Assembly (NCBI GenBank): GCA_964626845.1
Contig: CAZVGR010000005.1
Location: 36,557-100,556 of the forward strand
DNA length: 64,000 bases
Source of the DNA: an uncultured Anaerolinea sp.
GTDB taxonomy: Bacteria > Chloroflexota > Anaerolineae > JAAEKA01
Direction of reading: 5' to 3'
The notes under the pieces are model-generated. The model was given only the letters and a program-made list of their open reading frames with translations. It searched no databases and was not told the origin of the DNA. Of this stretch, positions 4,311 through 39,151 are shown in pieces; position 1 is the stretch's first letter; the number at the start of each line of letters is the position of its first letter. The position numbers and the translations under genes are program-made.

Positions 4311-6493
<2,183 letters not shown>

Positions 6494-6497
<4 letters not shown>

Positions 6498-8449: not shown

Positions 8450-8470
8450 GCGCCGTGCGCTCCTTGGAGC

Positions 8471-10021: not shown

Positions 10022-10065
10022 GGGACTACTCCTTTGTGCTGATTACAGCGTGAACAAAGTCTTTG

Positions 10066-10131: not shown

Positions 10132-10159
10132 ATGCGCAGTTACTTGGTTGACGCTGTAC

Positions 10160-13201
<3,042 letters not shown>

Positions 13202-13234
13202 CCTTCACCTGCCTTTGTGATAAGCCCAACGCCA

Positions 13235-16200
13235 TCAGGTCGTACTCAAGCTGTGGAACAAAGGTCTGTCCATCATTATACCACCAGTCTCCAGGATCGC
13301 ATCGTAGTCAAAATCGTCGATTGAGCGCCGCAGCGCAGCAGCCAGCTCGGGCTGTGCGGCCTCGACCTCGGCCGCCAGCGCCAGAAGCTGCCCGGCGTCG
13401 GCCGCCAGCGCGGCCTGGCGCACCTGCGCCGCCCAGCCGTCCGGCAGCGCCGTCAGGTCGATCGCCGGCGGGGCAGCCGCTGGAGTGACCGACGGCGCGT
13501 CGGCGTAGACCATCTGCACGCCCAGATGTCTGACCAGGCAGGCCACGATCTCTTCTGCGCGATAGGGCTTGCCCACGAAATCGTCGCAGCCATCGGCGCG
13601 CATCGCTGCGTGTTTATCGCTCAGAACACCGGCCGAGATGGCCACGATCACCGTTTGCTGACCCTGGGCGGTGGCCTTGATGCGCCGCGTGGTTTCATGG
13701 CCGTCCAGCGCTGGCATGCGCATGTCCATCCAGATCAGGTGCGGCTGCCACTCCTCCCACACCTGGATCGCCTCCTGCCCGTTCCCGGCCGTGCGCACGG
13801 CGAAACCCAACTGGGTCAGCAAGCCGGCCAGCAGCTCACGGCTTTCGGCGTGATCCTCCGCCACCAACAGGCGGTAATCAGGCTGGCCCGGCGCCAGGAA
13901 GGCTGTGCGCGGCCTGTCCGCCAGCGGCCTGCCAGTCTCGCCGTCCGCAACCGCCAGGCGCAGCGGCAAGACCACCTCAAAGCGGCTGCCCTCGCCAGGG
14001 ATGCCCGCGCTGAAGGCCGTCAGATCACCGCCCATCAGACGGGCGAATTGCTGGCTAATGGGCAAGCCGAGCCCGGTGCCGTCAGGCGCGTTGTGCCCAT
14101 TGGCAGACTGCACAAACGGCTCGAAGATCGCTGTCAGGTCGGCGGGCAAGATGCCAGAGCCGGTGTCTTGCACGGCGATCAGCAAACGGTCGTCGTCGCC
14201 GCCAGTTCGCTGCGCCGACAAGTCGATGCGACCGGACGGGGTGAACTTGACGGCGTTGCTCAGCAGGTTGATCAATATCTGGCGCAGCTTGCCTTGGTCG
14301 GCGTGGACCCAACGCGGCAGGCCGGGCCAGACTGTCAACGTCAGACTGATCCCCTTGGACTCGGCGCGCAGGCGGAACAGATCTGCAATATCTTCCAGCA
14401 GGTGGTGCAGGTTGAAGTCGCCCTCTTGCAGCACGGTGCGGCCTGCCTCGATCCTGGCCATGTCCAGCACATCGTTGATCAAAGCAAGCAAGTGATCACC
14501 GCTGCGGTTGATGATGGCCAGATTCTCGTGTTGCTTGGCGGTAAGATTGGCATCTCGGGCCATCAGTTCAGAGAAGCCCAGAATGGCGTTCAGCGGTGTG
14601 CGCAGCTCATGGCTGATGCTGGCCAGAAACTGGCTCTTGGCGCGATTGGCCGCTTCGGCCTGAGCGGCCATCTGGCTGGCGTGAGCTGTCTGCGCCGCCA
14701 ACTGGGCATTGGCCTGCCGCAGTTCCTCTTCGGCCCGTTTGCGTTCCCTGATATCGCGACTCACGCCGAGAATCTCCACGAAACCGCCGCTGGGACTGAG
14801 GATCGGAAACGCCATGACCTCGGCCCAGATGGTAGAGCCATCCTTATGGATGTATTCAAGCTCTCCCCGAAAACTCTCCAGCGGAAGACCTGCCTCTACA
14901 GCGGCCCATAAGTTCTGGTAGTACGCCTGGACAACAGCCTGGGAAGCAGGCGTAAGGATTTGCTCCAGCGGCTGCTGCAACGACTCGGCAGGCTTTACAC
15001 CACGCATCTGTTCGACCGATGGGCTGACATAAGTCATGCTGCCGTCAAGTCCATTCACCCAAACGACATCTCTGGCATTTTCGGCCAACAGCCGGTGGCG
15101 TATTTCGCTGATGCGCAGCGCTTCCACGGCCTGTTTGCGTTCCACTACAGACCAGACGGCATCCATCAACAATGACACCTGGAAGACATCGTCTTCCTGA
15201 TAGTCGGTTGCTTTGTTGGCCAGGCCGATCACGCCCACGATTTGTTGGCCCCGCCAAATCGGCGTCGTCATAAAACTCGTCAATCGTACATGGCCATCTG
15301 GAAGGCCTTTTTTCAAAGCATGGTTGGCCTGGAAGTCGTTGACAATGATCGGTCTGCGCTGACGAACGGCCTCACCCCAGATGCCGGTCTTGTCCAGCTC
15401 ATAACAGGTCTGCGGATTCACCACGTCGCAGTCAGGCATAACCTCCTTCGACCACGTGTTGAGGACAAATTCCTGGCGGTCCTCGTGGTAATGATAGATA
15501 TAGCCGATCTTGCTTTCAGTCAGCTCAATCGCCTCGGCCAGGGCGTAATCGAGGAATTGCTGGACGGACTCGGCCGGGTGTTTCAGAATGTTGACCAGTT
15601 TCTGCAGACGCATGTTGCTGCGTGTGATCTGCTCCTCTGCCTGCTTACGCTCGGTGATGTCCTGAAAAACCCCATAAACGCGCGCCGCCTGGCCGTCTTC
15701 TCGGTCAACATTACCAATGGCTCGCACCCAGAGATGATTTCCCTTCGCCGTGATGAAAGGCAATTCAAGATCAAAGGGCAGGTCTTCGGTCAGCGCCCGC
15801 TCAATTGCTTTCTGTATAACCGGCCGGGCGCTGGGTGCATAGAAGTTGATGGCAGAGTCCAGCTCAAGACGAAAATCAGGCTCCACCTCGTGAATCCGGT
15901 AGGTCTCTCGGGTCCAGGTGAGTTGGTTGGTCTTCAGGTCAAGCCCCCAGCCGCCGACCTTGGCCAGACTGCCCATGGTGCTCAGCAATTCCTCGCTCGC
16001 CCGCAGATCGTTCTCCATCTGCTTGCGTTCGCTGATATCGCTGATGCTGGACATGACACACGGTTCGTCGTTGACCACGATGACCTGCGCCGAGATCAGC
16101 CCGGTAAGCAACTCGCCTGATTTGCGGCGAAACTGAACCTCGCGTGCCGGCAAATGGCCCTGCGCTACCAGCCCTTCCAGCAGGCTGTTGCGATCTTCCG

Positions 16201-17038
16201 GGTTAGCCCAAACGTTCAGGTCCAGCATGGTCTTGCCCACAATCTCATCTCCGGTGTAGCCGCTCATCTGGACGAAGCCGTCGTTGACCTCGAAGATTTG
16301 CCCGGTTGGCAGGCTGGTAAGCGTGACCGCGTAGGGGGCGGAACGAAAAACTCGGGCGTATTTCTCCTCCTGTGCCAGGATCTGTTCCACCAGCCGCCTG
16401 TTGACCATGGCTATCAGGCTGATGGTCAGCGAGACGTTGAGCATGATGTAGAAGGTCATGGCCAGCGAATTCACCAGCCCGGTCTGGAAAAAATCGTTGG
16501 TTTGGGCGGGGATGACCAGGTGCAGACTGATGCGGGTCAGGCTGACGGCGGCATAGCCGGCCAGCACCAGGCCGGTCAGGCGGGTCACGGGGCGCAGGCT
16601 GGGGCTGACTCTTCGCAGCAGCAGCCAGGAAGCCTGAGCGGCGAAGAGCAGCAGCGCTGCCGAGATGACGATCTCGCGCACTTTCAGGCTCGGCTGCACG
16701 AACAGGAAATAGGTCAACAAGACTGGCGCGGCAGCCGCCGCGACATAGTTCCAGCCTTGCCGGCGCTGCTTGCCTGTAAAGCGCTCCAGTCCGATGAGTA
16801 GCAACAGCGCCCCGCTGATTACAAATGTGTTGGCGACGACGACCGACAGAAAATCGGGCACGCGGCCGCGCACCAGGATTAGCCCTGCGCCCGCGAACTG
16901 GCACATCATATCGGCCAGCCAGAACGAGATGCCAGCAAAACGACGGCGGTTGTTCAGCCACAGCAGCCACAGCGCGCCCATGTTGATGGTCGCAATTGCC
17001 AGCAGCAGCAGGATCAGTGTCTTGATGTCAAAGATCAT
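13235..17038 (-). CDS. Membrane-bound hybrid sensor histidine kinase (N-terminal polytopic domain, PAS, GAF, PAS, HisKA, HATPase, REC, C-terminal tail)
   Basis: Probable start MIFDIKTLILLLL at 17038, 5 bp after the upstream gene's stop (the track ORF extends to 17323, N-terminal 95 aa implausible). ~7 hydrophobic helices, GAF-like region (YIYHYHEDRQEFVL...), H-box ISHELRTPLNAILGF, REC, tail SIDDFDYDAIL. Confidence 0.8.
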   Translation of the reverse strand: MIFDIKTLILLLLAIATINMGALWLLWLNNRRRFAGISFWLADMMCQFAGAGLILVRGRVPDFLSVVVANTFVISGALLLLIGLERFTGKQRRQGWNYVAAAAAPVLLTYFLFVQPSLKVREIVISAALLLFAAQASWLLLRRVSPSLRPVTRLTGLVLAGYAAVSLTRISLHLVIPAQTNDFFQTGLVNSLAMTFYIMLNVSLTISLIAMVNRRLVEQILAQEEKYARVFRSAPYAVTLTSLPTGQIFEVNDGFVQMSGYTGDEIVGKTMLDLNVWANPEDRNSLLEGLVAQGHLPAREVQFRRKSGELLTGLISAQVIVVNDEPCVMSSISDISERKQMENDLRASEELLSTMGSLAKVGGWGLDLKTNQLTWTRETYRIHEVEPDFRLELDSAINFYAPSARPVIQKAIERALTEDLPFDLELPFITAKGNHLWVRAIGNVDREDGQAARVYGVFQDITERKQAEEQITRSNMRLQKLVNILKHPAESVQQFLDYALAEAIELTESKIGYIYHYHEDRQEFVLNTWSKEVMPDCDVVNPQTCYELDKTGIWGEAVRQRRPIIVNDFQANHALKKGLPDGHVRLTSFMTTPIWRGQQIVGVIGLANKATDYQEDDVFQVSLLMDAVWSVVERKQAVEALRISEIRHRLLAENARDVVWVNGLDGSMTYVSPSVEQMRGVKPAESLQQPLEQILTPASQAVVQAYYQNLWAAVEAGLPLESFRGELEYIHKDGSTIWAEVMAFPILSPSGGFVEILGVSRDIRERKRAEEELRQANAQLAAQTAHASQMAAQAEAANRAKSQFLASISHELRTPLNAILGFSELMARDANLTAKQHENLAIINRSGDHLLALINDVLDMARIEAGRTVLQEGDFNLHHLLEDIADLFRLRAESKGISLTLTVWPGLPRWVHADQGKLRQILINLLSNAVKFTPSGRIDLSAQRTGGDDDRLLIAVQDTGSGILPADLTAIFEPFVQSANGHNAPDGTGLGLPISQQFARLMGGDLTAFSAGIPGEGSRFEVVLPLRLAVADGETGRPLADRPRTAFLAPGQPDYRLLVAEDHAESRELLAGLLTQLGFAVRTAGNGQEAIQVWEEWQPHLIWMDMRMPALDGHETTRRIKATAQGQQTVIVAISAGVLSDKHAAMRADGCDDFVGKPYRAEEIVACLVRHLGVQMVYADAPSVTPAAAPPAIDLTALPDGWAAQVRQAALAADAGQLLALAAEVEAAQPELAAALRRSIDDFDYDAILETGGIMMDRPLFHSLSTT

Positions 17039-19469
17039 CGTGGGCCGCCTTTGCCCTGCCGTTGAGAGCGGCAAGAATTGCGTCGTAGTCGTAGTCGTTG
17101 ATCCACACCCGCAGGGCATCGGCCAGCGCGGGCTGCACAGGCTGGGCGGCTGCGGCCAGATCGTCGAGCTGCGCTGTGTCGGCCGCCAGCGCGGCCTGGC
17201 GCACCTGATCGCTCCAGCCGGCCGGCAGAGCGGCGAGATCGAAAAGCTGCCGGGCGCCTTCTTCCGGATTGACTGGCGCATAAAGCATGCGCACGCCCAG
17301 ATGCCTGACCAGACAGTCGACAATCTCGTCGGCGCGGAAGGGCTTTTGCAGGAAATCGTCGCAACCGTCGGCCAGCACGGCGGCGCGCTCCTCTTCCAAC
17401 ACGCTGGCCGAAAGGGCGATGATCACCGTGGCCTGGCCTTGGGGGGTGGCCTTGATGCGCCGCGTCGCCTCGTGGCCATCCATCACCGGCATGCGCATGT
17501 CCATCCAGATCAGGTGCGGCTGCCACGCCTCCCACTGTTGCACAGCTTGCACGCCGTTCTCAGCGGTGCGCACGGCAAAGCCCCACTGGCTGAGCCACTG
17601 ATACAACAGTTGCCGGCTTGCCGGGTGATCCTCCACCACCAACAGGCGGTAGGCTGGCTGGTCAGGCTCCAGGCCAAGGACGCGCGGCCCGCCTGCGCGC
17701 AGACCGGCGCGTTCCTCAGGTTCCTCGACCGGTTCCAGGGGGATGCTGAACTGGAAGAGGCTGCCCTGGCCCGCCACGCCAGCGCTAAAGGCCGTCAGCT
17801 CGCCGCCCAGCAGGTGGACATACTGGCGGCTGATGGCCAGGCCCAGCCCGGTCCCTTCGCGGGCAGCGTGACCGTTGCCAGCCTGCACGAAGGGATCAAA
17901 AATAGTCGCCAGCTCCTCAGGTGCAATGCCGGGGCCGCTGTCCTGCACGGCGAAAAGCAGCCGCCCGCTGCCGTCGTCGGCCCAACTCACCGACAGCTCG
18001 ACCAGGCCGGTCTCGGTGAACTTCACTGCGTTACCCATCAGGTTGATCAGCACCTGGCGCAGCTTGCCCTGGTCGCCATGCACCCAACGAGGCGCATCGG
18101 GCCAGAGCGTGAGAACCAGCAGCAGCCCTTTGGCTTCAGCGCGCAGCCGGAACAGATCGACCAGGTCTTCCAACAGTTGGTGCAGGTTGAAGTCGACCTG
18201 GTTGAGCGTGCTGCGGCCGGCCTCGATCTTAGCCAGGTCCAGCACATCGTTGATCAGGCTTAAGAGGTGGGCGCCGCTGTGATTGATGATGGCCAGGGTG
18301 TCCGCCTGTTGGCGTGAGAGTCCGGGATCTCGGCTCATCAGCTCGGAGAAGCCCAGAATGGCGTTCAGCGGCGTGCGCAGCTCGTGGCTCATGCTGGCCA
18401 GGAAGATGCTCTTGGCGCGATTGGCGGCCTGGGCCACATCTCTGGCGTGAGCCAGCTCTTCTTCGTTCTGTTTTCGCTGGGTGATATCGTGCAGTGTGGC
18501 CAGCCGGCCGGTTGCGTGCTGAAAACGGTCAACCAACGGCGCCACATACACGTCATAGATGTGCTGGCAGCCCAGGGGCGTGCATAGCTCGCGATGGGTT
18601 TCCTGGTCACAGTCCAGCACCTCGTTCAGCTCAGGCCAGGAGCGCAGCGCCAGCGCAGCCGGCTGGCCGATGACGGCGGGGGACAGTTGCGTGATCCGCT
18701 GCGCGGCCGGGTTGATGTCCACGATGCGCCGCTGAGGGTCGAGCACGATCACGCCGTCGGCCATGCTCTCAACCAGCTTGTCGCGCGCAATGGGCGCCAC
18801 ATCCAGCAGGTGATAGTAAAACAAACCAACGGCGAACATCAGCCCGGACAGGGTGAAGACGAAGGGGGTGATGTCCAGGTCAGGAAAAGGGCTGAGCCCG
18901 GCGATGCTGATGACGTTGCCTATCCACGGCAAAAGCGCGCCCAGGAGGATAACGCCGGTCTGGGGGCGATAAAAAGCCGGGGTGCGCCGATAGGCCCGCA
19001 CCAACAGCGCCACTGCCAGCAACAGCAAGCCATAGGAATAAAGGGCATTGAACCAGAACGCCGGGCCGCCATTGAGGATTGAGCCGGTGGTGCGCCGGCC
19101 GCCGTAAAACAGGCCGTGCCAATCGTCGGTCCAGAGCAGGATCAGAGTCAGCGCCGGCGCCACGCAAAGCAACAGGAGCCTGCGCCGCGTCAGCCAGTGC
19201 GCACGGCCGGTGTATTGCAAGACGAAGATCAAAAACGCGACAGGAATGAGCACAACCCCGAAGTAGGTGGCATCCAGCCAAAAATACTGCTTTGGCAGAT
19301 CTGAAACATGCCAGCGGATGGCGTAGGTCAGGGACCAAATCACCAACGCTGACATGAAGAGTATCATCGCCGGCGCGCCGGGGGCGCTGCGACGACGCCA
19401 ACTGAGCGCCACAACTGCGGCCGCCATAAGGGCTGAAAGGATGAGAGCCAGGGAATAGTGCCAGTTCAT
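17028..19469 (-). CDS. Hybrid sensor histidine kinase with N-terminal 7TM sensor domain (PAS, HisKA, HATPase, REC, C-terminal tail)
   Basis: Seven predicted TM helices in the first ~220 aa, PAS, H-box MSHELRTPLNAILGF, REC (HLIWMDMRMPVMDG), tail WINDYDYDAILAAL. 4-bp overlap with the upstream gene. Confidence 0.85.
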   Translation of the reverse strand: MNWHYSLALILSALMAAAVVALSWRRRSAPGAPAMILFMSALVIWSLTYAIRWHVSDLPKQYFWLDATYFGVVLIPVAFLIFVLQYTGRAHWLTRRRLLLLCVAPALTLILLWTDDWHGLFYGGRRTTGSILNGGPAFWFNALYSYGLLLLAVALLVRAYRRTPAFYRPQTGVILLGALLPWIGNVISIAGLSPFPDLDITPFVFTLSGLMFAVGLFYYHLLDVAPIARDKLVESMADGVIVLDPQRRIVDINPAAQRITQLSPAVIGQPAALALRSWPELNEVLDCDQETHRELCTPLGCQHIYDVYVAPLVDRFQHATGRLATLHDITQRKQNEEELAHARDVAQAANRAKSIFLASMSHELRTPLNAILGFSELMSRDPGLSRQQADTLAIINHSGAHLLSLINDVLDLAKIEAGRSTLNQVDFNLHQLLEDLVDLFRLRAEAKGLLLVLTLWPDAPRWVHGDQGKLRQVLINLMGNAVKFTETGLVELSVSWADDGSGRLLFAVQDSGPGIAPEELATIFDPFVQAGNGHAAREGTGLGLAISRQYVHLLGGELTAFSAGVAGQGSLFQFSIPLEPVEEPEERAGLRAGGPRVLGLEPDQPAYRLLVVEDHPASRQLLYQWLSQWGFAVRTAENGVQAVQQWEAWQPHLIWMDMRMPVMDGHEATRRIKATPQGQATVIIALSASVLEEERAAVLADGCDDFLQKPFRADEIVDCLVRHLGVRMLYAPVNPEEGARQLFDLAALPAGWSDQVRQAALAADTAQLDDLAAAAQPVQPALADALRVWINDYDYDAILAALNGRAKAAHDDL

Positions 19470-22400
19470 CGGGCTTGATCCAGATCAGACAGGAGGGGCT
19501 CTGCTGGCTCGGCGGCGGCCAGCAAAGCCAGGATCGCGTCATAGTCATAGACATCCAGCCAATCGCGCAACACATCGGCCAGCACAGGCCACTGCTCGTT
19601 CACATCGTCTGCCAGGCGCAGCAGGCGAGTAGCGTCGGCTGCGATAGCCGCCTGTTGCACCTGGTCTCGCCAGGCAGGGGGCAGGCTGGCGAGGTCGATG
19701 CCTGCCAGCTTCTGCTGGCTGGCCTGCGTTTGCTTGTCTGGCGTTGCAGCATAGAGCATGCGCACGCCCAGGTGATTGACCAGGCAGTCCACGATCTCGG
19801 CCATGCGGAAGGGCTTGCGCACGAAGTCATCGCAGCCGCTGGCCAGCATCAATGCTTTCTGTTCAGCCAGAACGCTGGCCGAGATGGCGATGATGACGGT
19901 GTCCTGGCCGTTGGGCATGGCCTTGATGCGCCGTGTAGCCTCATAGCCGTTCATCACCGGCATGCGGATGTCCATCCAGATCAGATGCGGCCGCCAGTCC
20001 TGCCAGACATCGAGGGCCTCCAGGCCGTTGTCGGCTGTGCGCACGGCGAAGCCCAACTGTGTCAGCAGGCTGGTCAGCAGCCGCTGGCTTTCGGGGCGAT
20101 CCTCGACGACCAGCAGGCGATATTCAGGCTGGCCCGGCTCCAGGCCGATGGCATGTTCGCTGGGCGTGGCGTGTTCGTGGGTGAACTCAGCCACTTCCGG
20201 TAAGGCAATGGCAAACTCGAAGCGGCTGCCCTGGCCCGGCTCGCCTGTGCTGGCAGCGATCAGATCGCCGCCCATCAAGCGCACAAACTCGCGGCTGATG
20301 GGCAGGCCCAGGCCGGTGCCCTGCGGCGCAATGTGCTCGTTGCTTGACTGCATGAAAGGCTCGAAAATCACCGTCAGATCGTCGGCCGGAATGCCCAGGC
20401 CGGTGTCCTGCACGGTGAAGACCACGCGGCCGCTGCCATCGTCCGCGCAGCGCACTGTCAGGTCGACGCTGCCTGCGTCGGTGAACTTGAACGCGTTGTC
20501 CAGCAGGTTGATCAACACCTGGCGCAGCTTGCCTTCGTCGGCATGAACCAGACGAGGGACGTCAGCAGAGCGGGCGCAGCGCAGCTCGATATTCTTGACA
20601 ATCGCACGCAGGCCGAACATCTCGTCCAGCTCATCCAGCATTCGGTGCAGGTCGAAGCTATCTTCTTGCAGCGTGATGCGCCCCGACTCGATTTTGGACA
20701 CGTCTAACACGGTGTTGATCAGGCCCAGCAGATGCTCGCCGCTGCGGTTGATGATGGTCAGATTCTCCCGTTGGTCCGGCGTCAACCCAGGGTCGCGCGC
20801 GATCAGCTCGGAGAAGCCCAGGATAGCGTTGAGCGGCGTGCGCAGCTCGTGACTCATATTGGCCAGGAACTGGCTTTTGGCGCGGTTGGCGGCCTCAGCG
20901 GCCTCCTTGGCCTCGGCCAGTGCGGCTTCGGCCAGTTTGCGCTCGGTGATGTCGTGGCCCTGAGCGATGGTGGCGACCACAGTCTGGCCATCGGGGCCAT
21001 AGAGCATGGCCGAGTTCCACAGCAGCGTGTGCAGCTTGCCAGTGCTGTCTTCGATGGTGATCTCCACCGTTTCCCAGCGGCGCCCCGTGGTGGTGTAGAT
21101 GTAGTTCAAGGAGGCTTGGCGCTGCTCGACCGGAAAGAGAAGCCCCAGCCCCTGGCCCAGCATGTCGCTGGCGCTGCGGCCGGTCAGCCGCTCGAATGCC
21201 TTGTTGAACTGGGTAATCTTATAGTCAGCGTCCCAGACAATGATCGGCGCGTTGGCGTAGTTCAGCAGGTTTTGCAGGTATTCACTGGTCTCGTGCAGGG
21301 CATGCTCGACGCGGGTGAGCTCGGTGATTTCACGGGCAAGCTGGATGCGGCTGTAGCTGAGGTTAGAGATCATTTCGGCGAACTGCGAGTAAAACTGCAT
21401 GATCTCGTCGACGCGTTGATGGCTGAAACGCGGCGCCCGCGCCAGGGCTGCCAGATAGGTCTTCTCCTCGAAGCCGTAGAACTGAGCCTGAGCGCGGAAG
21501 AGCTCGATGTCAGGTTCCTCATCCTCAAAGAAGAACTGGCTGAGAAACAGGTTGCCAATGGGGTTGCCAGCTACCACGATGGGAGTGGCCACGTCCTGCA
21601 TGTGATTCCTGCATTTATAGATCTTGAAGTTGCCCGGCTCGGCTCCCTGCGCTAAAACCGTGGCGCTTTCGATGCAAAAGCTGCACGACACAGGGTCCGC
21701 CCGGTGGAACCGGGTGCAGATATCCTGCCGGCCGGTGGAGACCAGGATGTTGCCACGCATATCCATGATCGAGATGCCTATCTGGGTGATGGCGTAGAGA
21801 TGATCCAGCATGGCCTGGACGGCCGGCAGGTCGATGATGTCTCGCAGCTCCAGCTTGCTGATGTCCGCATCGGGGGTGAGAATGGCGTCGAGCCGCGCCC
21901 GCACCTGATCCTTTTCGCGGCGCAGGTTCGCCTCGCTCTCACGCAGCGCATCCTCAGCGCGCTTGCGTTCGCTGATGTCGCGCGCCAGGCCGCAGATATA
22001 GGCGCGGTCATGGAACTGAATATAGTTGGTCTGCACTTCAACAGGCAGCAACTCGCCTGTCTTCTTACGATGCCACCCTTCGATAGCCAGCGACTTCTGG
22101 CGCTGCATCTCCTGCCATCGGTCTTGCCACTGTTCAGGCGTCACATCCGCGTCCACCTGCCACACAGACATGCTCAGCAGCTCGTCCTGGGAATAGCCCA
22201 GTTGCGCACAAGCAGCTCTGTTGACATAGGCCAGACGACCATCGGCAGTTGCCCAGTAGGCCGCGTCGGCGCTGTGATCGACGACGAACTGGGTGAAGTG
22301 CAGCCGCTCCTCAGCCTGAATTCGCTCGGTGATGTCCTGGATGGTGGCCACTGCGTACTGCACTGAGCCGTCAGGCTGGCGCACACAGCCCACCGAGAGC

Positions 22401-23230
22401 ATGACCCAGAGGATGGTCCCGTCCTTGCGAATGAAGCGTTTCTCCAGCCCATAGGTGTCGATTTCGCCGGCCAGCAGCCGTTGGAACTGCTGCAAATCGG
22501 CGGGCAGGTCATCAGGGTGGGTCAGCTCAGCCCAGGTCATGCCGGCCAGCTCTTCGGCAGAATAGCCGAGCATGGCGCAGATGCTATGGTTGACCTCCAG
22601 CCATCCTTTTTCCAGCGACGTAACAGCCAGGCCGACATAGGGGGCATCAAAGTAACTGCGCAGTTGCGCCTCGCGCTCGGTCAGCCTGGCGGCGGTCTGC
22701 TCGGCGCCCCTCTTCGCCTGCTCCAAAGCGGCGGTACGCTCTTGCACCCTGTCTTCCAGCAAGGCGCGCTCAGCAGCCAGCTCGCGCAGCGCCTCCCGCC
22801 GCTGCCGCACGGCTGTGAGCAGATAAGCTGTCAGCAGCAGAAAGAAGATCAGCAGGACCAGCGCGCCGATAGCCGGCCACACGATGTCCCGCCAATGCGA
22901 AAGCGGCCTTGGGTGTTCGATGCGGGCGTTACCCTGCGGCAGAGCGCGTTTCGCAGTAGGGCTATCGAGGACTGCGCCGGAGAATTCAGTCGGGGGGTGT
23001 GAGGCCGCCAGCGCATCAAGCAGGCTGCGTTGACTCCCTGTGTACCGTGAGTAGCTTAGAGAGGCTGCATTGAGCGCCAACTTGCTGGGGGGCTGGTCAG
23101 CGGCGCTCTGCGCTTCGACGGCGGCGGGGGCGGCCATGGCCAGCGTCACAAGCACGAACAAACACAGCGTTGGCCTGTTGATCCAGTGGGGCAGGCGGCA
23201 AGACATCGTTCGAAGATAGGAAAAGATCAT
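19466..23230 (-). CDS. Hybrid sensor histidine kinase with signal peptide/periplasmic segment, TM, PAS domains, a PocR sensory domain, HisKA, HATPase, REC, C-terminal tail
   Basis: Signal-like MSCRLPHWINRPTLCLFVLVTLAMAAPAAVEA, TM WPAIGALVLLIFFLLLTAYLL. PocR-like block with cysteines (CTRFHRADPVSCSFC...YKCRNH). H-box MSHELRTPLNAILGF, REC, tail WLDVYDYDAILALL. Confidence 0.8.
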   Translation of the reverse strand: MIFSYLRTMSCRLPHWINRPTLCLFVLVTLAMAAPAAVEAQSAADQPPSKLALNAASLSYSRYTGSQRSLLDALAASHPPTEFSGAVLDSPTAKRALPQGNARIEHPRPLSHWRDIVWPAIGALVLLIFFLLLTAYLLTAVRQRREALRELAAERALLEDRVQERTAALEQAKRGAEQTAARLTEREAQLRSYFDAPYVGLAVTSLEKGWLEVNHSICAMLGYSAEELAGMTWAELTHPDDLPADLQQFQRLLAGEIDTYGLEKRFIRKDGTILWVMLSVGCVRQPDGSVQYAVATIQDITERIQAEERLHFTQFVVDHSADAAYWATADGRLAYVNRAACAQLGYSQDELLSMSVWQVDADVTPEQWQDRWQEMQRQKSLAIEGWHRKKTGELLPVEVQTNYIQFHDRAYICGLARDISERKRAEDALRESEANLRREKDQVRARLDAILTPDADISKLELRDIIDLPAVQAMLDHLYAITQIGISIMDMRGNILVSTGRQDICTRFHRADPVSCSFCIESATVLAQGAEPGNFKIYKCRNHMQDVATPIVVAGNPIGNLFLSQFFFEDEEPDIELFRAQAQFYGFEEKTYLAALARAPRFSHQRVDEIMQFYSQFAEMISNLSYSRIQLAREITELTRVEHALHETSEYLQNLLNYANAPIIVWDADYKITQFNKAFERLTGRSASDMLGQGLGLLFPVEQRQASLNYIYTTTGRRWETVEITIEDSTGKLHTLLWNSAMLYGPDGQTVVATIAQGHDITERKLAEAALAEAKEAAEAANRAKSQFLANMSHELRTPLNAILGFSELIARDPGLTPDQRENLTIINRSGEHLLGLINTVLDVSKIESGRITLQEDSFDLHRMLDELDEMFGLRAIVKNIELRCARSADVPRLVHADEGKLRQVLINLLDNAFKFTDAGSVDLTVRCADDGSGRVVFTVQDTGLGIPADDLTVIFEPFMQSSNEHIAPQGTGLGLPISREFVRLMGGDLIAASTGEPGQGSRFEFAIALPEVAEFTHEHATPSEHAIGLEPGQPEYRLLVVEDRPESQRLLTSLLTQLGFAVRTADNGLEALDVWQDWRPHLIWMDIRMPVMNGYEATRRIKAMPNGQDTVIIAISASVLAEQKALMLASGCDDFVRKPFRMAEIVDCLVNHLGVRMLYAATPDKQTQASQQKLAGIDLASLPPAWRDQVQQAAIAADATRLLRLADDVNEQWPVLADVLRDWLDVYDYDAILALLAAAEPAEPLLSDLDQAR

Positions 23231-23504: not shown

Positions 23505-26500
23505 TCAGTCACGCAACCGTTGTCTGGCCAGCCTGCTGGCTCCGGCCGCGGCCGCCAGAAGGGCCAGCGCAGGCAGCCAGGCGGGCGCGCCGGTCTGCGC
23601 CGCGGCATGGAAGCTGCTCCAGACAACGGCGGTGGGCGCATCGAACCGCGCCGAGACCGGACCAAAACGCTGCACAGAGCCATCCAGCGCCACAGCCTCC
23701 AGCCAATACCAGTAAGTCTCGCCAGGCAGCACATCCAGGTCGTCGTAGGCATAGAAGAAGCCGCCCGATGCGCCGGGGGACTGCGCCGGGATAAACGCCA
23801 ACAGATGCTGCCCGCCCTGGCTGGCGTCACTGCGCAGCAGGTGGAAGCCCTGGTTGTCCAGCTCGCTGGCCGTTTGCCACTGGATCTGCACGCGATCCGG
23901 CTGGCTGACCGCGCTCAGCATCTCCAGGGTCACGGCCAACGGCGTCTGGAACAAGGCTGAAACCGGCCCGAAGCTCTGGGTACTGCCGTCCGTGTCGAGA
24001 GCCTCCAGCCAGTACCAATAGGTGACGCCTGAGATCACGTCGTAGTCTTTGTACTCATACATGAAGCCGGCGGGACTGCCCGTGGACTGAGAGGGGATGT
24101 AGGCCAACGACTGGGGCGGCCCCTGGCTGGAGGTGCTGCGCAACAGGTAGAAGCCGCGGTTGTCCAGCTCGCTGGCCGTCTCCCATTCGACCAGGATATG
24201 GTCCATCTTACGCTCGGCCGCGAACGACACCATGGTCACAGCCGTCGGGCCGACGATGATGGGCGTGGTGTACACGTCCAGGCCCTCTGCCAGATTGGTG
24301 TAGCCGCTGGGCGGGATGATCTCGGCCATCATCACCAGATCGGCCGGGCCTGCAGTGGGCGCCACCGTCCCAACCACGGTAATCGTGATGATCCCGCCCG
24401 GCTGCAAGGTAAGGGTCTGGCTGAAACCGTTGCTGCCGCTAGGCGTCGTGCAGGAAGAGCCGCTGGAGGCGACGCATTGCCAGGTGACGCTGCCAAGCTC
24501 CTCTGGCAACGTGTCGCTGACAATGGGCGAGGCTGCAGTCGGGCCGTTGTTGGTGATCACAATCGTGTGCGTGATCAGATTCCCCTGCTTGACTGGGTTG
24601 GGTGTGCCGCTGATCTTCAACGGAATGTTGATCACCGGCTGCAGCACGCTGCCCGCGCCGCTCTCGCCGCTGTAGCTGATAGCATAGCCGTTCTGGTAAC
24701 TGGTAGTCGCCCGGTTAGTCAGCAGATTGCTGCCGCTGGCCAGCACGGTGATGGTATGGCTGTCAGTGGCCAGACTGCCCAGCCCGTCGCGCGCCGTTAC
24801 CACCGCCGTGTAGACGCCCGGCGTGCTGTAGGTGTGCTCGATGCTGGTGTTGGTAGTATACGACGCGCTCTGGTTGTCCCCGAAGCTGATGGTGTAGCTG
24901 AAGGGCAGCTTGCCGCGCAGCAATGGCAACATGGAAAACGTGACTTCTTCATCTTCCAGAGTTATCGATGGGGCGGTGACAAAGGGCACCGAGCGGCTAA
25001 AGGAGGCCTCCAGACGGTACAACAGGGCTGGATGGTCCTTGCCGCCGTATTCGGGGTGGCCGCCGTGGGTGCTGCCGGTGAGGCGCAGGGCCAGCAGGTT
25101 GACGCCGGCCAGCACGGCGCTGCTGACATCAGTGGCCGCGGCGTGACCCGCGCCATACTGAGTGGCCATATAGCGGCCATTGACGTAGATATCGACGATG
25201 TCGTCGCTGGCCGTCTGCAAGCTGGCCTGAAAACCGCGCGCGTTGGGCGGCAGGTAGAAGTATTGGCGGAAGAAGCTGTAGTTGCGGTCGATCTGCGGCT
25301 CCGGCTCGACCGCCACCCACTCGGCGCCCAGGGTTGCAGCCGGCAGCCAGTAAGGCTCGGTCGTCGCCGGGGGCTTCACGGTCTCCCAGAGCGAGTCGTC
25401 AAAGATCGGGCCATCAAGCTGTGGATTGCTCGTCCAGCCGGCCGGGCCAACCGGGTTGGCGTCGCCCCAGTAGCCCAGGATCGTGGAACAGCCCGCCGAG
25501 AAGCACCACGGACTGCTCACCGACTTGACGGTCGAGGTCAGAACCAGTGAACCTGAGGCGCTCTCGCTGCTGGCGGTGGGGGCTGACTGGCTGGCGCCGC
25601 CCGCGCCCACCCCGACCGTGACGGCAAAGCTGACCTGCCCGGTGGCGCCGACCCCCAGGTTGCCCAGATTCCAGGTGACCTTGCCACCGTTGGCGCTGCC
25701 GCCGCCGCTGATGCTGCCCGCAACCAGTGTCGTGTTGGCGGGGATCACATCGCTGATGACAACGCTGCGGGCTGCGACCGGGCCATCGTTGCGATAGACA
25801 ATGGTGTACGTGATCTGTCCGCTGACATAGCTCTGGCCGGCCACGCTCTTTTCCAGCACCAGGATGGGGCGAGCAATGCGCACGATATCCTCGGCGCTGT
25901 TGGTGCTGGGGTCCGGGTCTGGCCCACCAGCGCCGTCGTCGTCGATCTCCACCCGGTTGATGGTCAATTCGCCTGAGGCCGAAGCATCGACGGTGGCGGT
26001 CAGCACGATGGCGTGGGGACCATCGACAGCCACCTCGCCCAGGGTCCAGGTGACGACGCCAGCAGCATGGATGCCGGGTGGAGCGCTCTCCACGTAGGTC
26101 ATCCTTGGGTCCAGGGTGTCGGTGATGAGCACGCCCGAGGCCACCTGGCTGCCTGTGTTGCTGTAGGTGAGCGTGTACCGGACAGTCTGGTTGGCCTCGA
26201 AGTAGGTGCCGCTGTGGCTCTTGCGGATCACCAGGTCGGGCTGGGCGTTAACCGCCATCACCGCGGTGGACTGGTTGTCGGCCAGCACAGGGTCGCCCAC
26301 AGACGAGGTAATGTAGGCCGTGTTGCTGATCTGCTCCACGCCGGCCGGCAGCACATCGGTGATGCGCACGGTGAAGCTGATCACCCCGCTGGCGCCGGCT
26401 GCCAGATCGCCCAGGCTGAAACTGATCACCCGGCTTGCGCTGATATATTGCCCCTGATCTTCGTCATCGCCATCCGTCACGGGGCTGCCGTTCTGCTTCA

Positions 26501-28982
26501 GGCTGTTGGGGACATAGCTGGTATTGGCCGGGATGACGTCGGTCAGCACGGTATTAGTCGCGACCTCGTTGCCCAGGTTGCCATAGCGCAGGCGATAGAG
26601 CATCAGCTCGCCAGGCAGCGCGGGAATGGTGGTAGGAAAGGCGTTCTTTTGCACGTACACATCGGCCCCAGCCTGCGCGCTGAGCACCAGTGTCGATATG
26701 TTATCGGCCGGATCCAGGTCCAGTTCAGCGCTGGTGACCTCGGCCGTGTTGGTGATCAGCGTGACGCCAGGGGGCAGCGTGTCAGTCACCGTGGCGGTGT
26801 AGCGCAGATAGCCGGCTGCGCCCGGCGGCATATTGGGCAGGTTGAGGAGCAACTGCTTGATGGCGCTGTTGTAGGTCGCCGTCACCGGATAAGTAGTGCC
26901 TCCCACCACTAACACGGCAGAGCCGGGGACGTAGGTGGTGTTGCTGTCCAAAGTATCGGTGATGCGCACGCCGGTGGCGATGGCGCCGCCCCGGTTGTCG
27001 CCGATGTAGGTGTAGGTGATGGTGCTGCTGGCTGCAATCGGCACCGAGTCAGCCGTGGCGCTCTTGAAGATCGTCAGATCAGGACGGGCCAACACCTGGG
27101 TGGTGGCGATACGCTGGTTGTTGGTCAGGTCAGCTTCCAGGCTGGTGGTTGTGGCACGCGCCAGGTTGCTCAGCGTTGTAAGGCCATAGGGCATCGGGAT
27201 GGCGACGCGCGCGTTGAGGGTGAACACCTTTTGTTCGCCGATGGCCAGATTGCCCAAAGACCACCTCAGCGTGTTGGTGGGATTCTCAGTGGGCGTTATG
27301 CCGCTGGTGTCGCTGACATAGGCGGTGTAGCTGGGCAGCACGTCGGTCAGGATGACGCTGTTGGCGATCAGGCTGCCCTGGTTGCGCACGGTCAGGGTGT
27401 AGCTGATCAGCTCGTCAGGATAGACCAGGGTGCGGTTCGCGGTCTTCAGCACCAGCAGATCGGCCGTGGCCAGAGCCAGGTTCTGCGTGTTGTTGCACGC
27501 CGTCAGCGTTGGCGTTGCGGTCTGGGTCTGATAGTTCGTCTTGCTGGCGCGCACCGTGGCCGCCCCCGTGCGCAGCAGCTTGCTGGGCGTGCTGCTGAAG
27601 CTATACGCGCCGCCGCTGCCAGAAGTGGTCTCCCAGCGTGTGCCGACCGAATCGGTCAGAACCACAGTAGCGCCGACAATCGGCACACCCGTGCCCTGGT
27701 CGGTCACCACGCCGCTCAGCAGAGTTGGCGCCAGGGCCACGTTCTGGACATTGATGACCCCTTCAACCACGGCTGTGCTCAACGTCTTGGGGCAATAGCC
27801 AGTGGTGGAAACCTTCATCGACACCGGGCCGGCGTTGATGGGATTCTCAGTGCTGGCCGTGAACGAGTAGATGCCAGTCGTCTCGACAGCAACCGTGCTG
27901 TAGCTGTGCCTGGGCGTGCCAGTGTCAGTGATGACCACGGTGGCGCCGGGCAGAGGCGTGCTGCTGGTCTGGTCGGTCACCTGGCCGCGCAAAATGGTCG
28001 GCAGATTCTTGGCCGTAACCGTCAGGTTGCGGATCTCGTGATAGTTGGTGGAGCCGCCAGTGGAGGCCGCAAAGCCCATCTTCAGCGTTTCGGGGGGAGC
28101 ATTCGGCAGCAGATAAGACCCTATAATCGTCTGCAGCGCACCGGTGGCCCCGAACTGAATCTTGACCATGATGGTGTAGCTGCCCGTGCCAGTGGGCGTG
28201 ACGTCGATCTGGATCTTGCGATAGCCCGCGCCATTGATGTCAGGCCGGGTGGTCACGTTGGGCACGTCCAGCCGTTGTGAGGCTTGCACGCCCGTCAGGT
28301 AGACATAGCCGCTCATCCCGTTGCCCGGACCGCGCACCACCACGGCGCGCCCAACCCGGCCTGGCCCGCCGATGCGGCCCTCGGTCGGGTTGGAGAAGTT
28401 GCCGAATTCGTCGATGCCGATGCCCACATAACCGCTGGAGAGACCGTTGAAGCCAGAGCGCTGGGCATAACCCAACGAGCCGCCATAGCCGCCAATGTTG
28501 AAGCTTTGCTGGCCCGGTTCGCCCACATTGCCATCATAAAGAAAGAAGGTCAGGCCATCAGCGCCGGTGCCGCCCCAGCTCATATACTCAAAGGTGATCG
28601 CCAGGCCATTGGTCGACTCGAAAGACCGGTCGTAAATCGCATAGCCCTTTTTGTTGTACTCCTTGGTGGTCAGACGCAGCCAGCCATCGCCGTTGGGGTC
28701 CACGCCGGTCAGAGCCGTCAAGGAGGCATCGTCGCCGAGAATCCAGCCGTCGGCGAGGGTGCTATAACGAAACGACTCGGTGATCGGGAACGTGGCGGTC
28801 GGCGCCCGATGCTCGGCCGCGCTGACCGGCGGCTGGCCCTGCTGCAAGCTGCCGGCCGCAGCCGGCTGGCTGAAAGCCAGCGATAGCCATAAAGCGGCCA
28901 GCAAAGCGCCGCTGAGCAACAGACCGGTAGCCAGCAGAGCTACTGGCAGCGGGTGGCGAGAGTTGTGAGTCGTGTTCATCAT
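23505..28982 (-). CDS. Giant secreted/cell-surface protein: N-terminal L-type (legume-like) lectin domain, carboxypeptidase-regulatory-like and multiple DUF11/TIGR01451 repeats, PKD-like domain, two tandem ~95-aa C-terminal repeats, hydrophobic + basic C-terminal tail
   Basis: 1825 aa. Signal peptide. Lectin-like GWLRLTTKEYNKKGYAIY...GLAITFEY...ADGLTFFLYDG. DUF11 repeats (e.g. LLVLKTANRTLVYPDELISYTLTVRNQGSLIANSVILTDVLP). PKD-like FSMLPL...YTAVVTARDG. Tandem repeats WETASELDNRGFYLLRS / WQTASELDNQGFHLLRS. C-term PAWLPALALLAAAAGASRLARQRLRD. Confidence 0.85.
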   Translation of the reverse strand: MMNTTHNSRHPLPVALLATGLLLSGALLAALWLSLAFSQPAAAGSLQQGQPPVSAAEHRAPTATFPITESFRYSTLADGWILGDDASLTALTGVDPNGDGWLRLTTKEYNKKGYAIYDRSFESTNGLAITFEYMSWGGTGADGLTFFLYDGNVGEPGQQSFNIGGYGGSLGYAQRSGFNGLSSGYVGIGIDEFGNFSNPTEGRIGGPGRVGRAVVVRGPGNGMSGYVYLTGVQASQRLDVPNVTTRPDINGAGYRKIQIDVTPTGTGSYTIMVKIQFGATGALQTIIGSYLLPNAPPETLKMGFAASTGGSTNYHEIRNLTVTAKNLPTILRGQVTDQTSSTPLPGATVVITDTGTPRHSYSTVAVETTGIYSFTASTENPINAGPVSMKVSTTGYCPKTLSTAVVEGVINVQNVALAPTLLSGVVTDQGTGVPIVGATVVLTDSVGTRWETTSGSGGAYSFSSTPSKLLRTGAATVRASKTNYQTQTATPTLTACNNTQNLALATADLLVLKTANRTLVYPDELISYTLTVRNQGSLIANSVILTDVLPSYTAYVSDTSGITPTENPTNTLRWSLGNLAIGEQKVFTLNARVAIPMPYGLTTLSNLARATTTSLEADLTNNQRIATTQVLARPDLTIFKSATADSVPIAASSTITYTYIGDNRGGAIATGVRITDTLDSNTTYVPGSAVLVVGGTTYPVTATYNSAIKQLLLNLPNMPPGAAGYLRYTATVTDTLPPGVTLITNTAEVTSAELDLDPADNISTLVLSAQAGADVYVQKNAFPTTIPALPGELMLYRLRYGNLGNEVATNTVLTDVIPANTSYVPNSLKQNGSPVTDGDDEDQGQYISASRVISFSLGDLAAGASGVISFTVRITDVLPAGVEQISNTAYITSSVGDPVLADNQSTAVMAVNAQPDLVIRKSHSGTYFEANQTVRYTLTYSNTGSQVASGVLITDTLDPRMTYVESAPPGIHAAGVVTWTLGEVAVDGPHAIVLTATVDASASGELTINRVEIDDDGAGGPDPDPSTNSAEDIVRIARPILVLEKSVAGQSYVSGQITYTIVYRNDGPVAARSVVISDVIPANTTLVAGSISGGGSANGGKVTWNLGNLGVGATGQVSFAVTVGVGAGGASQSAPTASSESASGSLVLTSTVKSVSSPWCFSAGCSTILGYWGDANPVGPAGWTSNPQLDGPIFDDSLWETVKPPATTEPYWLPAATLGAEWVAVEPEPQIDRNYSFFRQYFYLPPNARGFQASLQTASDDIVDIYVNGRYMATQYGAGHAAATDVSSAVLAGVNLLALRLTGSTHGGHPEYGGKDHPALLYRLEASFSRSVPFVTAPSITLEDEEVTFSMLPLLRGKLPFSYTISFGDNQSASYTTNTSIEHTYSTPGVYTAVVTARDGLGSLATDSHTITVLASGSNLLTNRATTSYQNGYAISYSGESGAGSVLQPVINIPLKISGTPNPVKQGNLITHTIVITNNGPTAASPIVSDTLPEELGSVTWQCVASSGSSCTTPSGSNGFSQTLTLQPGGIITITVVGTVAPTAGPADLVMMAEIIPPSGYTNLAEGLDVYTTPIIVGPTAVTMVSFAAERKMDHILVEWETASELDNRGFYLLRSTSSQGPPQSLAYIPSQSTGSPAGFMYEYKDYDVISGVTYWYWLEALDTDGSTQSFGPVSALFQTPLAVTLEMLSAVSQPDRVQIQWQTASELDNQGFHLLRSDASQGGQHLLAFIPAQSPGASGGFFYAYDDLDVLPGETYWYWLEAVALDGSVQRFGPVSARFDAPTAVVWSSFHAAAQTGAPAWLPALALLAAAAGASRLARQRLRD

Positions 28983-29049
28983 GATGTCGATCCTTAGCTG
29001 GTATCTGGGTGGGTAACTGACGGCGAGTAGAATGACGGGCTGTTACGCG

Positions 29050-31464: not shown

Positions 31465-31579
31465 GTTACTTACTACTCAGCCATAGGTGCCGGGCACTGG
31501 AATCTGCGCCTGCAACGAAGTCTGTGGAGCCGATCTCAGCCGCCCATGAGCTGCAAGTGCCCGGCACCTGAGTAATAAC
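31465..31579. mobile_element. MITE-like element family 1 (115 bp), degenerate TSD (CACAGATC / CACAAAAC, 6/8)
   Basis: Ends GTTACTTACTACTCAG...CCATAGGTGCCGGGCAC and CAAGTGCCCGGCACCTGAGTAATAAC. Left arm carries a 6-nt insertion (CCATAG), as in the 57119 copy. Confidence 0.7.
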
Positions 31580-31590
31580 CACAAAACAAC

Positions 31591-35299: not shown

Positions 35300-35411
35300 G
35301 TTACTCTACTCAGGTGCCGGGCACTTGCAGCTCATGTGCGGCTTGAATAGGTTCGGCAGACATCGCTGCAAACGTAGATTCAAGTGCCCGGCACCATAGC
35401 TGAGTAGCAAC
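35300..35411. mobile_element. MITE-like element family 1 (112 bp) with perfect 8-bp TSD CTCTGTGA, inserted in the LysR/cytochrome-operon divergent promoter region
   Basis: Ends GTTACTCTACTCAGGTGCCGGGCACTTG ... CAAGTGCCCGGCACCATAGCTGAGTAGCAAC. TSD at 35292-35299 and 35412-35419. Confidence 0.8.
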
Positions 35412-35440
35412 CTCTGTGATAAAATTCCCGAATAGAAGTA

Positions 35441-38044: not shown

Positions 38045-39151
38045 TTGCCTCCGTTGGAGGCATGGCAAAAGGTCCTGGTGAGCGAAAAGTTCCTGACGGA
38101 CGACGTACACAGCAAGCCTGGCTGCATCGCCTGTCACGGCGGCACGCCTGGCGTGGTCGACAAGGAACAGGCCCATACCGGGATGTACAAGCTGGCAGCA
38201 GCGAACCCAGACCGCGCTTGCGGCGGCTGCCACGTGGCCGTCGTCGACCAGGCGCAGACCAGCTCGCATCGCCTGCTGCCCGGCTATCTGACCGTCATGT
38301 CGGAGCGCGGCGCAGACTTCACGATGCCAGAAACGGTGCGGGCCTACACCACCCATTGCACCAAGTGCCACGCGACCTGCGGCGACTGCCACATCAGCCG
38401 GCCCCAGGCGCTGGACGGCGGCCTGATCGATGGACACGTGGTCAAGCGAGTGGCCTCGGTGTTCACTACCTGCGGCGGCTGTCATAGCGCGCGCATCGCC
38501 GACGAATACAGGGGCGCCCATGAGGGCATCCCGGCTGATGTCCACTGGCAAAAGGCAGGTATGCCCTGCACCCGCTGCCACACCATGGAGGAGTTCCACG
38601 AGGGCCAACACGGCACGCGCTACGACTCCGAACCCAGCGTAGACTGCATCGACTGCCACCAGGAAGATGTGCAACTGGGCGGCGACAACTTGCAGCACAC
38701 CATCCACACCAACACTGTGCAGTGCCACGTTTGCCACTCAGCCGGCGAGTACAAGTCCTGCTTCACCTGCCACACCGGCGAGGACGACAAGGGCATTCCC
38801 TACTACACCACCGAGCCATCGCAGATGACCTTCAAAATCGGCCGCAACCCGATCCAGAGCGAGAGCCGGCCCTGGAACTACGTGCTGCTGCGCCATGCGC
38901 CCACCAATCCCGACCTGTGGGCCTTCTACGGCGACGACCTGCTGCCGACCTTCGACAACCTGCCCACATGGAAGGCGACGACGCCGCATAACATCCAGAA
39001 GATCACGCCACAAAACGCTACCTGCAATAGTTGCCACGGCCAGGAGGAGTTGTTCCTCACCGAAGCCGATGTGGCGCCCGACCTGCTGGAGGCCAATCGT
39101 CGTGTGATCGTGACCAGGATCCCGCGTACGCTGCCGGAGGTCGAGCCATGA
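38045..39151 (+). CDS. Decaheme c-type cytochrome (10 CXXCH), no own signal peptide
   Basis: TTG-start ORF. CIACH, CGGCH, CTKCH, CGDCH, CGGCH, CTRCH, CIDCH, CHVCH, CFTCH, CNSCH. Stop overlaps the next start (ATGA). Confidence 0.7.
   Translation: MPPLEAWQKVLVSEKFLTDDVHSKPGCIACHGGTPGVVDKEQAHTGMYKLAAANPDRACGGCHVAVVDQAQTSSHRLLPGYLTVMSERGADFTMPETVRAYTTHCTKCHATCGDCHISRPQALDGGLIDGHVVKRVASVFTTCGGCHSARIADEYRGAHEGIPADVHWQKAGMPCTRCHTMEEFHEGQHGTRYDSEPSVDCIDCHQEDVQLGGDNLQHTIHTNTVQCHVCHSAGEYKSCFTCHTGEDDKGIPYYTTEPSQMTFKIGRNPIQSESRPWNYVLLRHAPTNPDLWAFYGDDLLPTFDNLPTWKATTPHNIQKITPQNATCNSCHGQEELFLTEADVAPDLLEANRRVIVTRIPRTLPEVEP

Follow-up and report, generated by a model that had tools for sequence, protein, structure and literature searches.

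The window analysed here (the whole stretch of DNA studied, 64,000 nucleotides of contig CAZVGR010000005.1 from an uncultured Anaerolinea sp.) contains on its minus strand a gene for a surface protein of 1825 amino acids (aa), hereafter 'the giant', which ends in a short motif, a hydrophobic segment and a cluster of basic residues. We are highly confident that endings of this kind constitute a family and that the giant belongs to it. The open reading frame (ORF), which opens MMNTT, is a real gene, as a preliminary description made from the sequence had it: GC content at third codon positions is 0.82, in line with the real genes of the window, and a Shine-Dalgarno-like site stands before the start codon. 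From N- to C-terminus the protein comprises a signal peptide, an L-type-lectin-like domain, two CarboxypepD_reg domains, five DUF11 repeats, a GH2_N-like jelly roll, a PKD domain, a sixth DUF11, two fibronectin type III (FN3) repeats of a particular subtype, and the tail (Table 1).

Table 1. Features of the gene for the giant, its product and its upstream region (positions in the window; aa, residues of the protein; nt, nucleotides; E, E-value; GA, gathering cut-off).
Feature	Position	Strand	Basis
Gene for 1825-aa surface protein (giant)	23505..28982	minus	ORF list; stop codon 23505-23507
Signal-peptide-like N-terminus MMNTTHNSRHPLPVALLATGLLLSGALLAALWLSLAFSQPAAAG, aa 1-43	28854..28982	minus	basic n-region, long hydrophobic core, AAA-G; heuristic only
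L-type-lectin-like (ConA-like) beta-sandwich, aa 98-319	28026..28691	minus	Pfam PF18483 (Lectin_L-type_dom)
Two CarboxypepD_reg Ig-like domains, aa 329-506	27465..27998	minus	PF13620, 39.6 and 47.8 bits, both above GA 32.3
Five DUF11 repeats, aa 507-1157	25512..27464	minus	PF01345, 49.7-69.1 bits each; TIGR01451 E 9.7e-56
Weak GH2_N / galactose-binding-like jelly roll, aa ~1158-1335	24978..25511	minus	PF02837 E 0.044; phmmer PDB 6ed1_A E 3e-4
PKD domain, aa 1336-1413	24744..24977	minus	PF18911 36 bits (GA 27); PF00801 29.2 bits (GA 23.5)
Sixth DUF11, aa ~1460-1543	24354..24605	minus	PF01345, 34.7 bits
FN3-subtype repeat 1, aa 1577-1678, WETASELDNRGFYLLR ... TYWYWLEA	23949..24254	minus	motif scan; alignment
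FN3-subtype repeat 2, aa 1679-1782, WQTASELDNQGFHLLR ... TYWYWLEA	23637..23948	minus	AlphaFold2, Foldseek
Signature motif PTAVVWSSFHA, aa 1783-1793	23604..23636	minus	resembles FN3-subtype strand A; coil in AlphaFold2 model
Hydrophobic segment AWLPALALLAAAAGAS, aa 1801-1816, predicted membrane helix	23535..23582	minus	AlphaFold2 helix, model residues 128-150; 20-residue uncharged run
Basic C-terminal cluster RLARQRLRD, aa 1817-1825	23508..23534	minus	translation
Shine-Dalgarno-like AAGGA, 8 nt 5' of ATG	28991..28995	minus	direct reading of sequence
MITE-like palindromic repeat, 63-nt perfect-hairpin short copy, 68 nt upstream of the giant's start codon	29050..29112	.	inverted repeats, fold
Further MITE copies (at least 6)	10063-10134, 31469-31583, 35300-35412, ~45867-45883, 57120-57232, 63548-63660		

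The tail of the giant runs from PTAVVWSSFHA through a spacer of 7 residues and a hydrophobic helix of ~16 residues to RLARQRLRD. Its hydrophobic and Arg-rich part had been quoted correctly in the preliminary description, which overlooked the PTAV signature just before it. An AlphaFold2 model of the last FN3 domain and the tail consists of the FN3 fold, a 22-residue coil containing PTAV and the terminal helix, and nothing else.

A scan of genomes, one per species of the Genome Taxonomy Database, yielded 395 or more relatives of the FN3 subtype, and the best 80 loci were analysed. These 80 derive from ~37 metagenome-assembled genomes (MAGs), nearly all of them from Chloroflexota (Anaerolineae, Caldilineae/Caldilineales, Ardenticatenaceae, Thermoflexales and Ca. 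Amarolinea), with as many as eight of the best 80 loci in one genome (MFD10570 bin10; HK-STAS-CHLO-19 has six). PTAV, helix and RRR occurred together in 64/91 complete C-termini. The shared ending starts with the FN3 subtype, followed by P-T-A-V-x-L-x-x-h-x-A, ~10 variable residues often including LP, ~20 hydrophobic residues and RRR(R), at which the protein stops; the signature takes the form P-T-A-V-x-L-x-x-F/L-x-A and lies ~36 residues before the Arg cluster. Across 55 aligned tails the P is invariant, the T, the A and the first Arg are each at least 90% conserved, and the consensus of the cluster is RRR. Spacing is similarly constrained, with a median of 36 residues from PTAV to the first basic residue (range 31–42) and of 6.5 from there to the C-terminus (58 relatives, range 3–13).

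The proteins that carry this ending are otherwise unrelated, their N-terminal parts including cohesin, FN3, GEVED, ice-binding, LTD and DUF11 domains, and by a heuristic 35 to 38 of the 46 complete members have signal-peptide-like N-termini. The PTAV tail was found, moreover, on several proteins that do not have the FN3 subtype, indicating that it is an autonomous module, separable from FN3. A profile of the 51-residue tail gave just five significant matches among 5.8 billion proteins, a small number attributable to the shortness of the query. It is clear that the tail is a widespread C-terminal module of fixed geometry, present in many copies per genome in Chloroflexota and represented by no Pfam or NCBIfam model. 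The preliminary description had named the lack of any other protein with the same tail as grounds for giving up its proposal; what was found is a large Chloroflexota family of near-identical modules.

In the giant, PTAV precedes the first basic residue by 34 residues, and that residue lies 9 from the C-terminus. A hidden Markov model (HMM) of the tail built without the giant scored it at 13.1 bits (E 0.002), alone among the 505 ORFs of the window with E <0.1, so that the window holds one PTAV-tail protein. This match, together with the geometry, marks the giant as a genuine though divergent member of the tail family.

By the published definition (Haft, 10.1101/2023.06.07.544157), a tripartite sorting signal lies at the C-terminus, recurs several times within a genome, has three or more nearly invariant motif residues, and includes a helix and an Arg cluster (2–5 basic residues, mostly Arg, after the transmembrane segment), on carriers that have signal peptides and are otherwise unrelated; cleavage by a dedicated sorting enzyme, and the co-occurrence of that enzyme with the signal across genomes, also belong to the definition, and for these the C25 gene neighbourhood described below is the only lead. 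Every one of these properties that can be read from sequence is displayed by the tail family, the copy number being seen in the relatives; the giant itself displays the location at the extreme C-terminus, the PTAV motif, and the hydrophobic segment followed by RLARQRLR. None of the known signals accounts for its tail. LPXTG does not occur in the last 60 residues, the tail had no match in NCBIfam (TIGR01167 included) at E up to 10, PEP and PGF motifs and Cys are absent from it, as the preliminary description had stated for LPXTG, PEP and PGF, and neither the PEP-CTERM, PGF-CTERM and MYXO-CTERM models nor, over the whole giant, the C-terminal domain of type IX secretion systems (T9SS; PF18962 / TIGR04183) gave a match. 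LPXTG, PEP, PGF, MYXO, GlyGly and T9SS C-terminal domain signals were ruled out for the giant by these motif and model tests. The tails of the 55 relatives gave weak, scattered matches to CTERM models (MYXO-CTERM in 23/55, best E 2.5e-4; GVDTG, PEP-CTERM, the LPXTG anchor and others), which are due to the shared composition of helix and Arg rather than to membership. Tripartite signals are already known as a kind; what looks new here, judging from sequence, is a family of tails bearing their formal hallmarks for which Pfam and NCBIfam have no model.

A helix with a basic stub fits a plain type I anchor equally well, and the chances that the tail is processed rather than simply an anchor appear about balanced; a mere single-pass anchor was the second ground on which the preliminary description would have given up its proposal. 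Were it an anchor, the cell being monoderm, the helix and stub would tether the protein in the cytoplasmic membrane, with the FN3 domains and the PTAV linker as a stalk and with neither cleavage nor enzyme; we give this a substantial chance, although one short of even. The AlphaFold2 model, with just FN3, linker and terminal helix, is what such an anchor would look like, and the CTERM matches, spread over many unrelated models, reflect a generic likeness to helix plus RRR. The signature PTAV-x-L-x-x-F-x-A, moreover, equals the first strand of the FN3 subtype (strand A, PLAVTLxSFxA), and being a copy of that strand it could owe its conservation to structure, or be an evolutionary remnant of a truncated FN3. 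Other observations likewise weigh against a recognised signal in the giant: its tail is divergent, at 13 bits, with an Ala-rich hydrophobic core of 16–17 residues and Arg interspersed rather than contiguous; PTAV sits 15–20 residues before the helix and not next to it as in LPXTG, PEP or PGF signals; and genes for a sortase, exosortase, rhomboid, CPBP, C25 or S26-like protein were not found within the 64-kb window. A mere anchor would, however, leave several properties of the family unaccounted for, since a segment predicted to be non-globular has kept both motif and spacing, the distance of the Arg cluster from the end is in every case 3–13 residues, the module moves among unrelated proteins and exists without FN3, copies are many per genome, and all the sequence-level hallmarks of processed sorting signals are present.

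The two repeats that precede the tail had been described as tandem copies, ~95 aa long, of one domain. They are indeed tandem (55% mutual identity) and the motifs quoted for them are exact, but each is ~103 aa long, and structure prediction returned an ordinary FN3 fold of a particular subtype. AlphaFold2, given an alignment of 25 copies, produced a seven-strand sandwich (pLDDT 93.4), for which the top Foldseek matches in the PDB were FN3 domains, those of two pectate lyases (PelI and Pel3), of C. thermocellum Fn3 and of Ihog (probability 1.0, TM ~0.7). On the strength of this model, the repeat is an FN3 domain of a distinct subtype and not a new fold. The last 253 residues of the giant had no family match in Pfam or NCBIfam at the thresholds used. 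A profile search with the FN3 alignment extended to 119,799 representatives, many of which contain tens of repeats, a reach that denotes the FN3 superfamily in general and is too unspecific for mapping the tail module. Self-BLAST of the giant showed no internal-repeat matches, and its repeats were therefore defined by motif and HMM.

By its make-up, the giant is probably a secreted, surface-displayed modular protein that binds particles or glycans, as the preliminary description had proposed for its display at the surface. Its N-terminus looks like a Sec signal peptide by heuristic, in keeping with that description. The L-type lectin domain claimed there was recovered at E 1.7e-10, with a score (41.6 bits) under the gathering cut-off of PF18483 (78.3), and the region had no match among PDB sequences (phmmer); this is a further point against the proposed role, and the glycan-binding reading rests on this one sub-threshold match together with one weak match of the jelly roll. 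The PKD domain was borne out by two models above their gathering cut-offs, PF18911 and PF00801. Six DUF11 repeats were counted with PF01345 rather than the ~10 reported (244 bits in total across the six stretches, single repeats 34.7–69.1 bits, all over the cut-off of 24.6), while the two CarboxypepD_reg domains and the weak GH2_N-like jelly roll had been overlooked. The giant itself is an ordinary, adhesin-like kind of modular protein; its full domain combination has a sole distant full-length relative among the fetched loci (L064, 28–44% identity in pieces). The giant's exact sequence, taken from either Met, matched no record.

The commonest unrelated neighbour in the 80 FN3-seeded loci is a peptidase of ~950 residues that matches Pfam Peptidase_C25 (E 1.9e-79) and the NCBIfam model of the T9SS sortase PorU (217 bits, E 3e-64, over ~730/1095 model positions; cut-off 420). 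Its gene lies within 6 kb in 11/80 loci (11/~37 genomes), mostly directly downstream on the same strand. A gene for an S24/S26-like peptidase is present in three loci, in two of them directly after the C25 gene. The reciprocal set, 80 metagenome loci seeded with the C25 peptidase, contained a separate FN3-subtype protein in 35/80 (directly adjacent on the same strand in 16) and a PTAV-tail protein, FN3-less ones included, in 15/80; where at least 4 kb was available on both sides, 13/21 held a separate FN3-subtype protein, and six of the C25 proteins themselves carry the FN3 subtype.

These associations, together with the model matches and the finding that in Bacteroidota-type proteins the FN3 subtype directly precedes the T9SS C-terminal domains of PorU substrates, raise the idea that a PorU-like C25 cysteine peptidase, related to the T9SS sortase, recognises the PTAV module as its substrate signal; it would cut close to PTAV and either set the protein free or attach it to an envelope polymer. 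We regard this as unlikely, though an attractive lead. Surface-protein genes cluster anyway and the counts come without a proper background control, so that the C25 neighbourhood can be taken as a lead only; the PorU score is 217 against a family cut-off of 420; several C25 paralogues occur in some genomes, Ca. Amarolinea having three (L019, L098 and L160); the commonest C25 neighbours end in Y-L-P-L-h-x-R and not in helix plus RRR; and the 64-kb window has no C25 gene. A literature search on PorU or C25 in Chloroflexi, or on Chloroflexota sorting signals, found nothing relevant to support it. That the PorU-like C25 protein is the enzyme that processes the PTAV tail is accordingly doubtful to us on present sequence comparisons, and the fuller claim, of a previously undescribed, Chloroflexota-wide sorting signal ('PTAV-CTERM') processed by such a peptidase, is probably wrong in at least some part. 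One protein first grouped with the C25 peptidases (L053_6486_9398) was dropped, having no alignment to the C25 family; by eye it is subtilase-like.

Proteolysis would have a different outcome if the PTAV segment were a donor strand, which after cleavage would insert into the FN3 domain of a neighbour and so polymerise fibres or a sheath. Protease-triggered strand exchange occurs in the type V pili of Bacteroidia, and both the duplication of the first FN3-subtype strand by the tail motif and the C25 peptidase genes that neighbour the relatives are compatible with something similar. The tail is also found, however, on proteins that lack an FN3 acceptor, the segment stays a coil in the monomer model, and the idea rests purely on analogy; we think it very improbable.

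Other endings and gene arrangements were seen among the relatives. In three of the loci, a string of genes for an FN3-subtype giant, a PorU-like C25 peptidase, an S24/S26-like protein of signal-peptidase type (~150 aa) and a ~300-aa protein was apparent (L010:2472-6817, L063:6675-10871 and L047:3655-7772, the C25 not being recognised in L047). A second recurrent ending, [YFWL]-[LIF]-P-[LIVM]-[ILVM]-x-(R/Q) at the extreme C-terminus (LYLPLVMRR, AYLPVVRR, AFIPIILR, NSYLPMITR), occurred on FN3-subtype proteins beside PorU-like C25 genes (L102, L105, L109, L128, L136, L139, L144, L151 and others), in 14/35 distinct FN3-subtype neighbours, and also on C25 peptidases (L063:6675-9545, L029:8768-11644 and L010:2472-5441); it may be another unrecognised C-terminal tag. 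A third ending, L-P-x-R-P-R-P-x-x-x-P with no hydrophobic helix, followed the FN3 subtype in a few Chloroflexota MAGs (L054 and L071, two genes each, and L077). Two FN3-subtype matches were present too in MAGs labelled Planctomycetota (L026 and L065): in one the contig end truncates a hydrophobic tail, the other has no tail, and the pair could represent a wider distribution or a binning error.

Upstream of the giant lies a repeat resembling a miniature inverted-repeat transposable element (MITE), as the preliminary description had noted: a 63-nt perfect hairpin belonging to a repeat family whose core is matched 23 times in the window, where chance would give 0.5. Its terminal inverted repeats are GTTACTACTCAGGTGCCGGGCACTTG / CAAGTGCCCGGCACCTGAGTAGTAAC. 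Full-size copies measure ~110 nt, every copy is intergenic, and the copy upstream of the giant is without the internal segment of the full copies. On the other side of the gene, a scan of the downstream intergenic region for promoters and terminators found neither, with no terminator-like site between the giant and the first kinase gene.

Directly downstream, on the same strand, are five large genes in a row for PAS/GAF histidine kinases (4311-23230, minus). The four within 10160-23230 encode hybrid kinases with receiver domains, one with a PocR sensory domain and one with a seven-transmembrane N-terminus; no receiver domain was seen in the kinase gene at 6494-8449, and the gene at 4311-6545 was called a kinase solely by a shared C-terminal motif. 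Other genes of the window encode a solute-binding protein, a multihaem cytochrome cluster, a major facilitator superfamily transporter, and YfhO-like and PMT_2 membrane proteins. The cluster at 38045-43054 contains multihaem c-type cytochromes (Cytochrome_C7, MtrC/MtrF-like domains) and a cytochrome b561-like membrane protein, which suggests an extracellular electron-transfer module. At 58205-62852 a PMT_2 glycosyltransferase-like protein (554 aa) adjoins the YfhO-like protein (1004 aa, ~11 helices); the latter also ends in a helix and RRRA, yet does not match the PTAV tail HMM. A housekeeping pyridoxal-phosphate enzyme of the window shares 75% identity with proteins of Caldilineales, 70% with those of Chloroflexota and 67% with those of Anaerolineae.

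Taken as a single statement, the reading that we prefer is that the giant is a Sec-exported surface protein whose conserved tail is a recognised sorting or anchoring module, and we judge its chances slightly better than even. The bacterium would be a Caldilineales-related member of Chloroflexota, which exports the protein by Sec and carries the lectin-like head, the Ig-like spacers (CarboxypepD_reg, DUF11 and PKD) and the jelly roll on a membrane-proximal stalk of two FN3 domains. After export, helix and Arg cluster would keep the C-terminus in the cytoplasmic membrane, following the positive-inside rule, and since Chloroflexota of this group are regarded as monoderm, such a helix would place the ectodomain on the cell surface. 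As with other tripartite signals, the juxtamembrane PTAV segment may then be recognised by an enzyme dedicated to processing or anchoring, and the mature protein would be freed of the helix and stay on the envelope. At a minimum, the module would serve as a type I membrane anchor.

Members of Chloroflexota are plentiful in soils, sediments and activated sludge, and little is known of their envelope biology. As a sequence tag, the tail could mark the Chloroflexota surface proteome, with tagged genes numbering up to eight or more in a genome even though the sample is partial, and surface adhesins, enzymes and sheath components could be listed directly from MAGs. Processing by a dedicated enzyme would make tail and enzyme a new pair among the few prokaryotic sorting systems on record; should the enzyme be the PorU-like peptidase, surface display in monoderms would be connected with the type IX sortase. 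In that event the sortase's transpeptidase chemistry would work without a T9SS and attach surface proteins by the dozen in each cell of a monoderm phylum.

Among known systems, the tripartite signals (LPXTG/sortase, PEP-CTERM/exosortase, PGF-CTERM/archaeosortase, GlyGly-CTERM/rhombosortase and MYXO-CTERM/myxosortase) share with the PTAV tail the order of motif, helix and Arg at the extreme C-terminus, and, like it, are present many times in a genome, on secreted proteins that have signal peptides and are unrelated to one another. The PTAV tail departs from them in having its own motif, with no Cys, LPXTG, PEP, PGF or GlyGly, in the 15–20 residues between motif and helix, in being matched specifically by no model, and in its usual fusion to a particular FN3 subtype. 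The resemblance to the T9SS of Bacteroidota is of another kind: in Bacteroidota-type homologues the same FN3 subtype stands immediately before the T9SS C-terminal domain, and in Chloroflexota genes for PorU-like C25 peptidases often lie close by. Unlike T9SS cargo, however, the giant ends in helix and Arg cluster without that domain, and the Chloroflexota C25 proteins score under the PorU cut-off; neither a T9SS nor an outer membrane for it to cross is known from Chloroflexota. The FN3 domains of bacterial glycoside hydrolases and pectate lyases (PelI, Pel3, C. thermocellum Fn3) have the same seven-strand fold as the giant's repeats, which are distinguished by the motifs W-x-T-x-x-E-x-x-N-x-G-F-x-L-x-R and T-Y-W-Y-W-L-E; unlike ordinary FN3, this subtype is missed by Pfam models at the thresholds used and is positionally tied to C-terminal anchoring elements. 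Similar in overall construction are the large adhesin- or S-layer-like surface proteins of bacteria and archaea built from DUF11, PKD and CarboxypepD_reg domains. Like the giant, they have a signal peptide, long strings of Ig-like repeats with binding modules at their ends, and an anchor at the C-terminus; the giant differs from them in combining a lectin-like head, a jelly roll, two FN3 domains and the PTAV tail.

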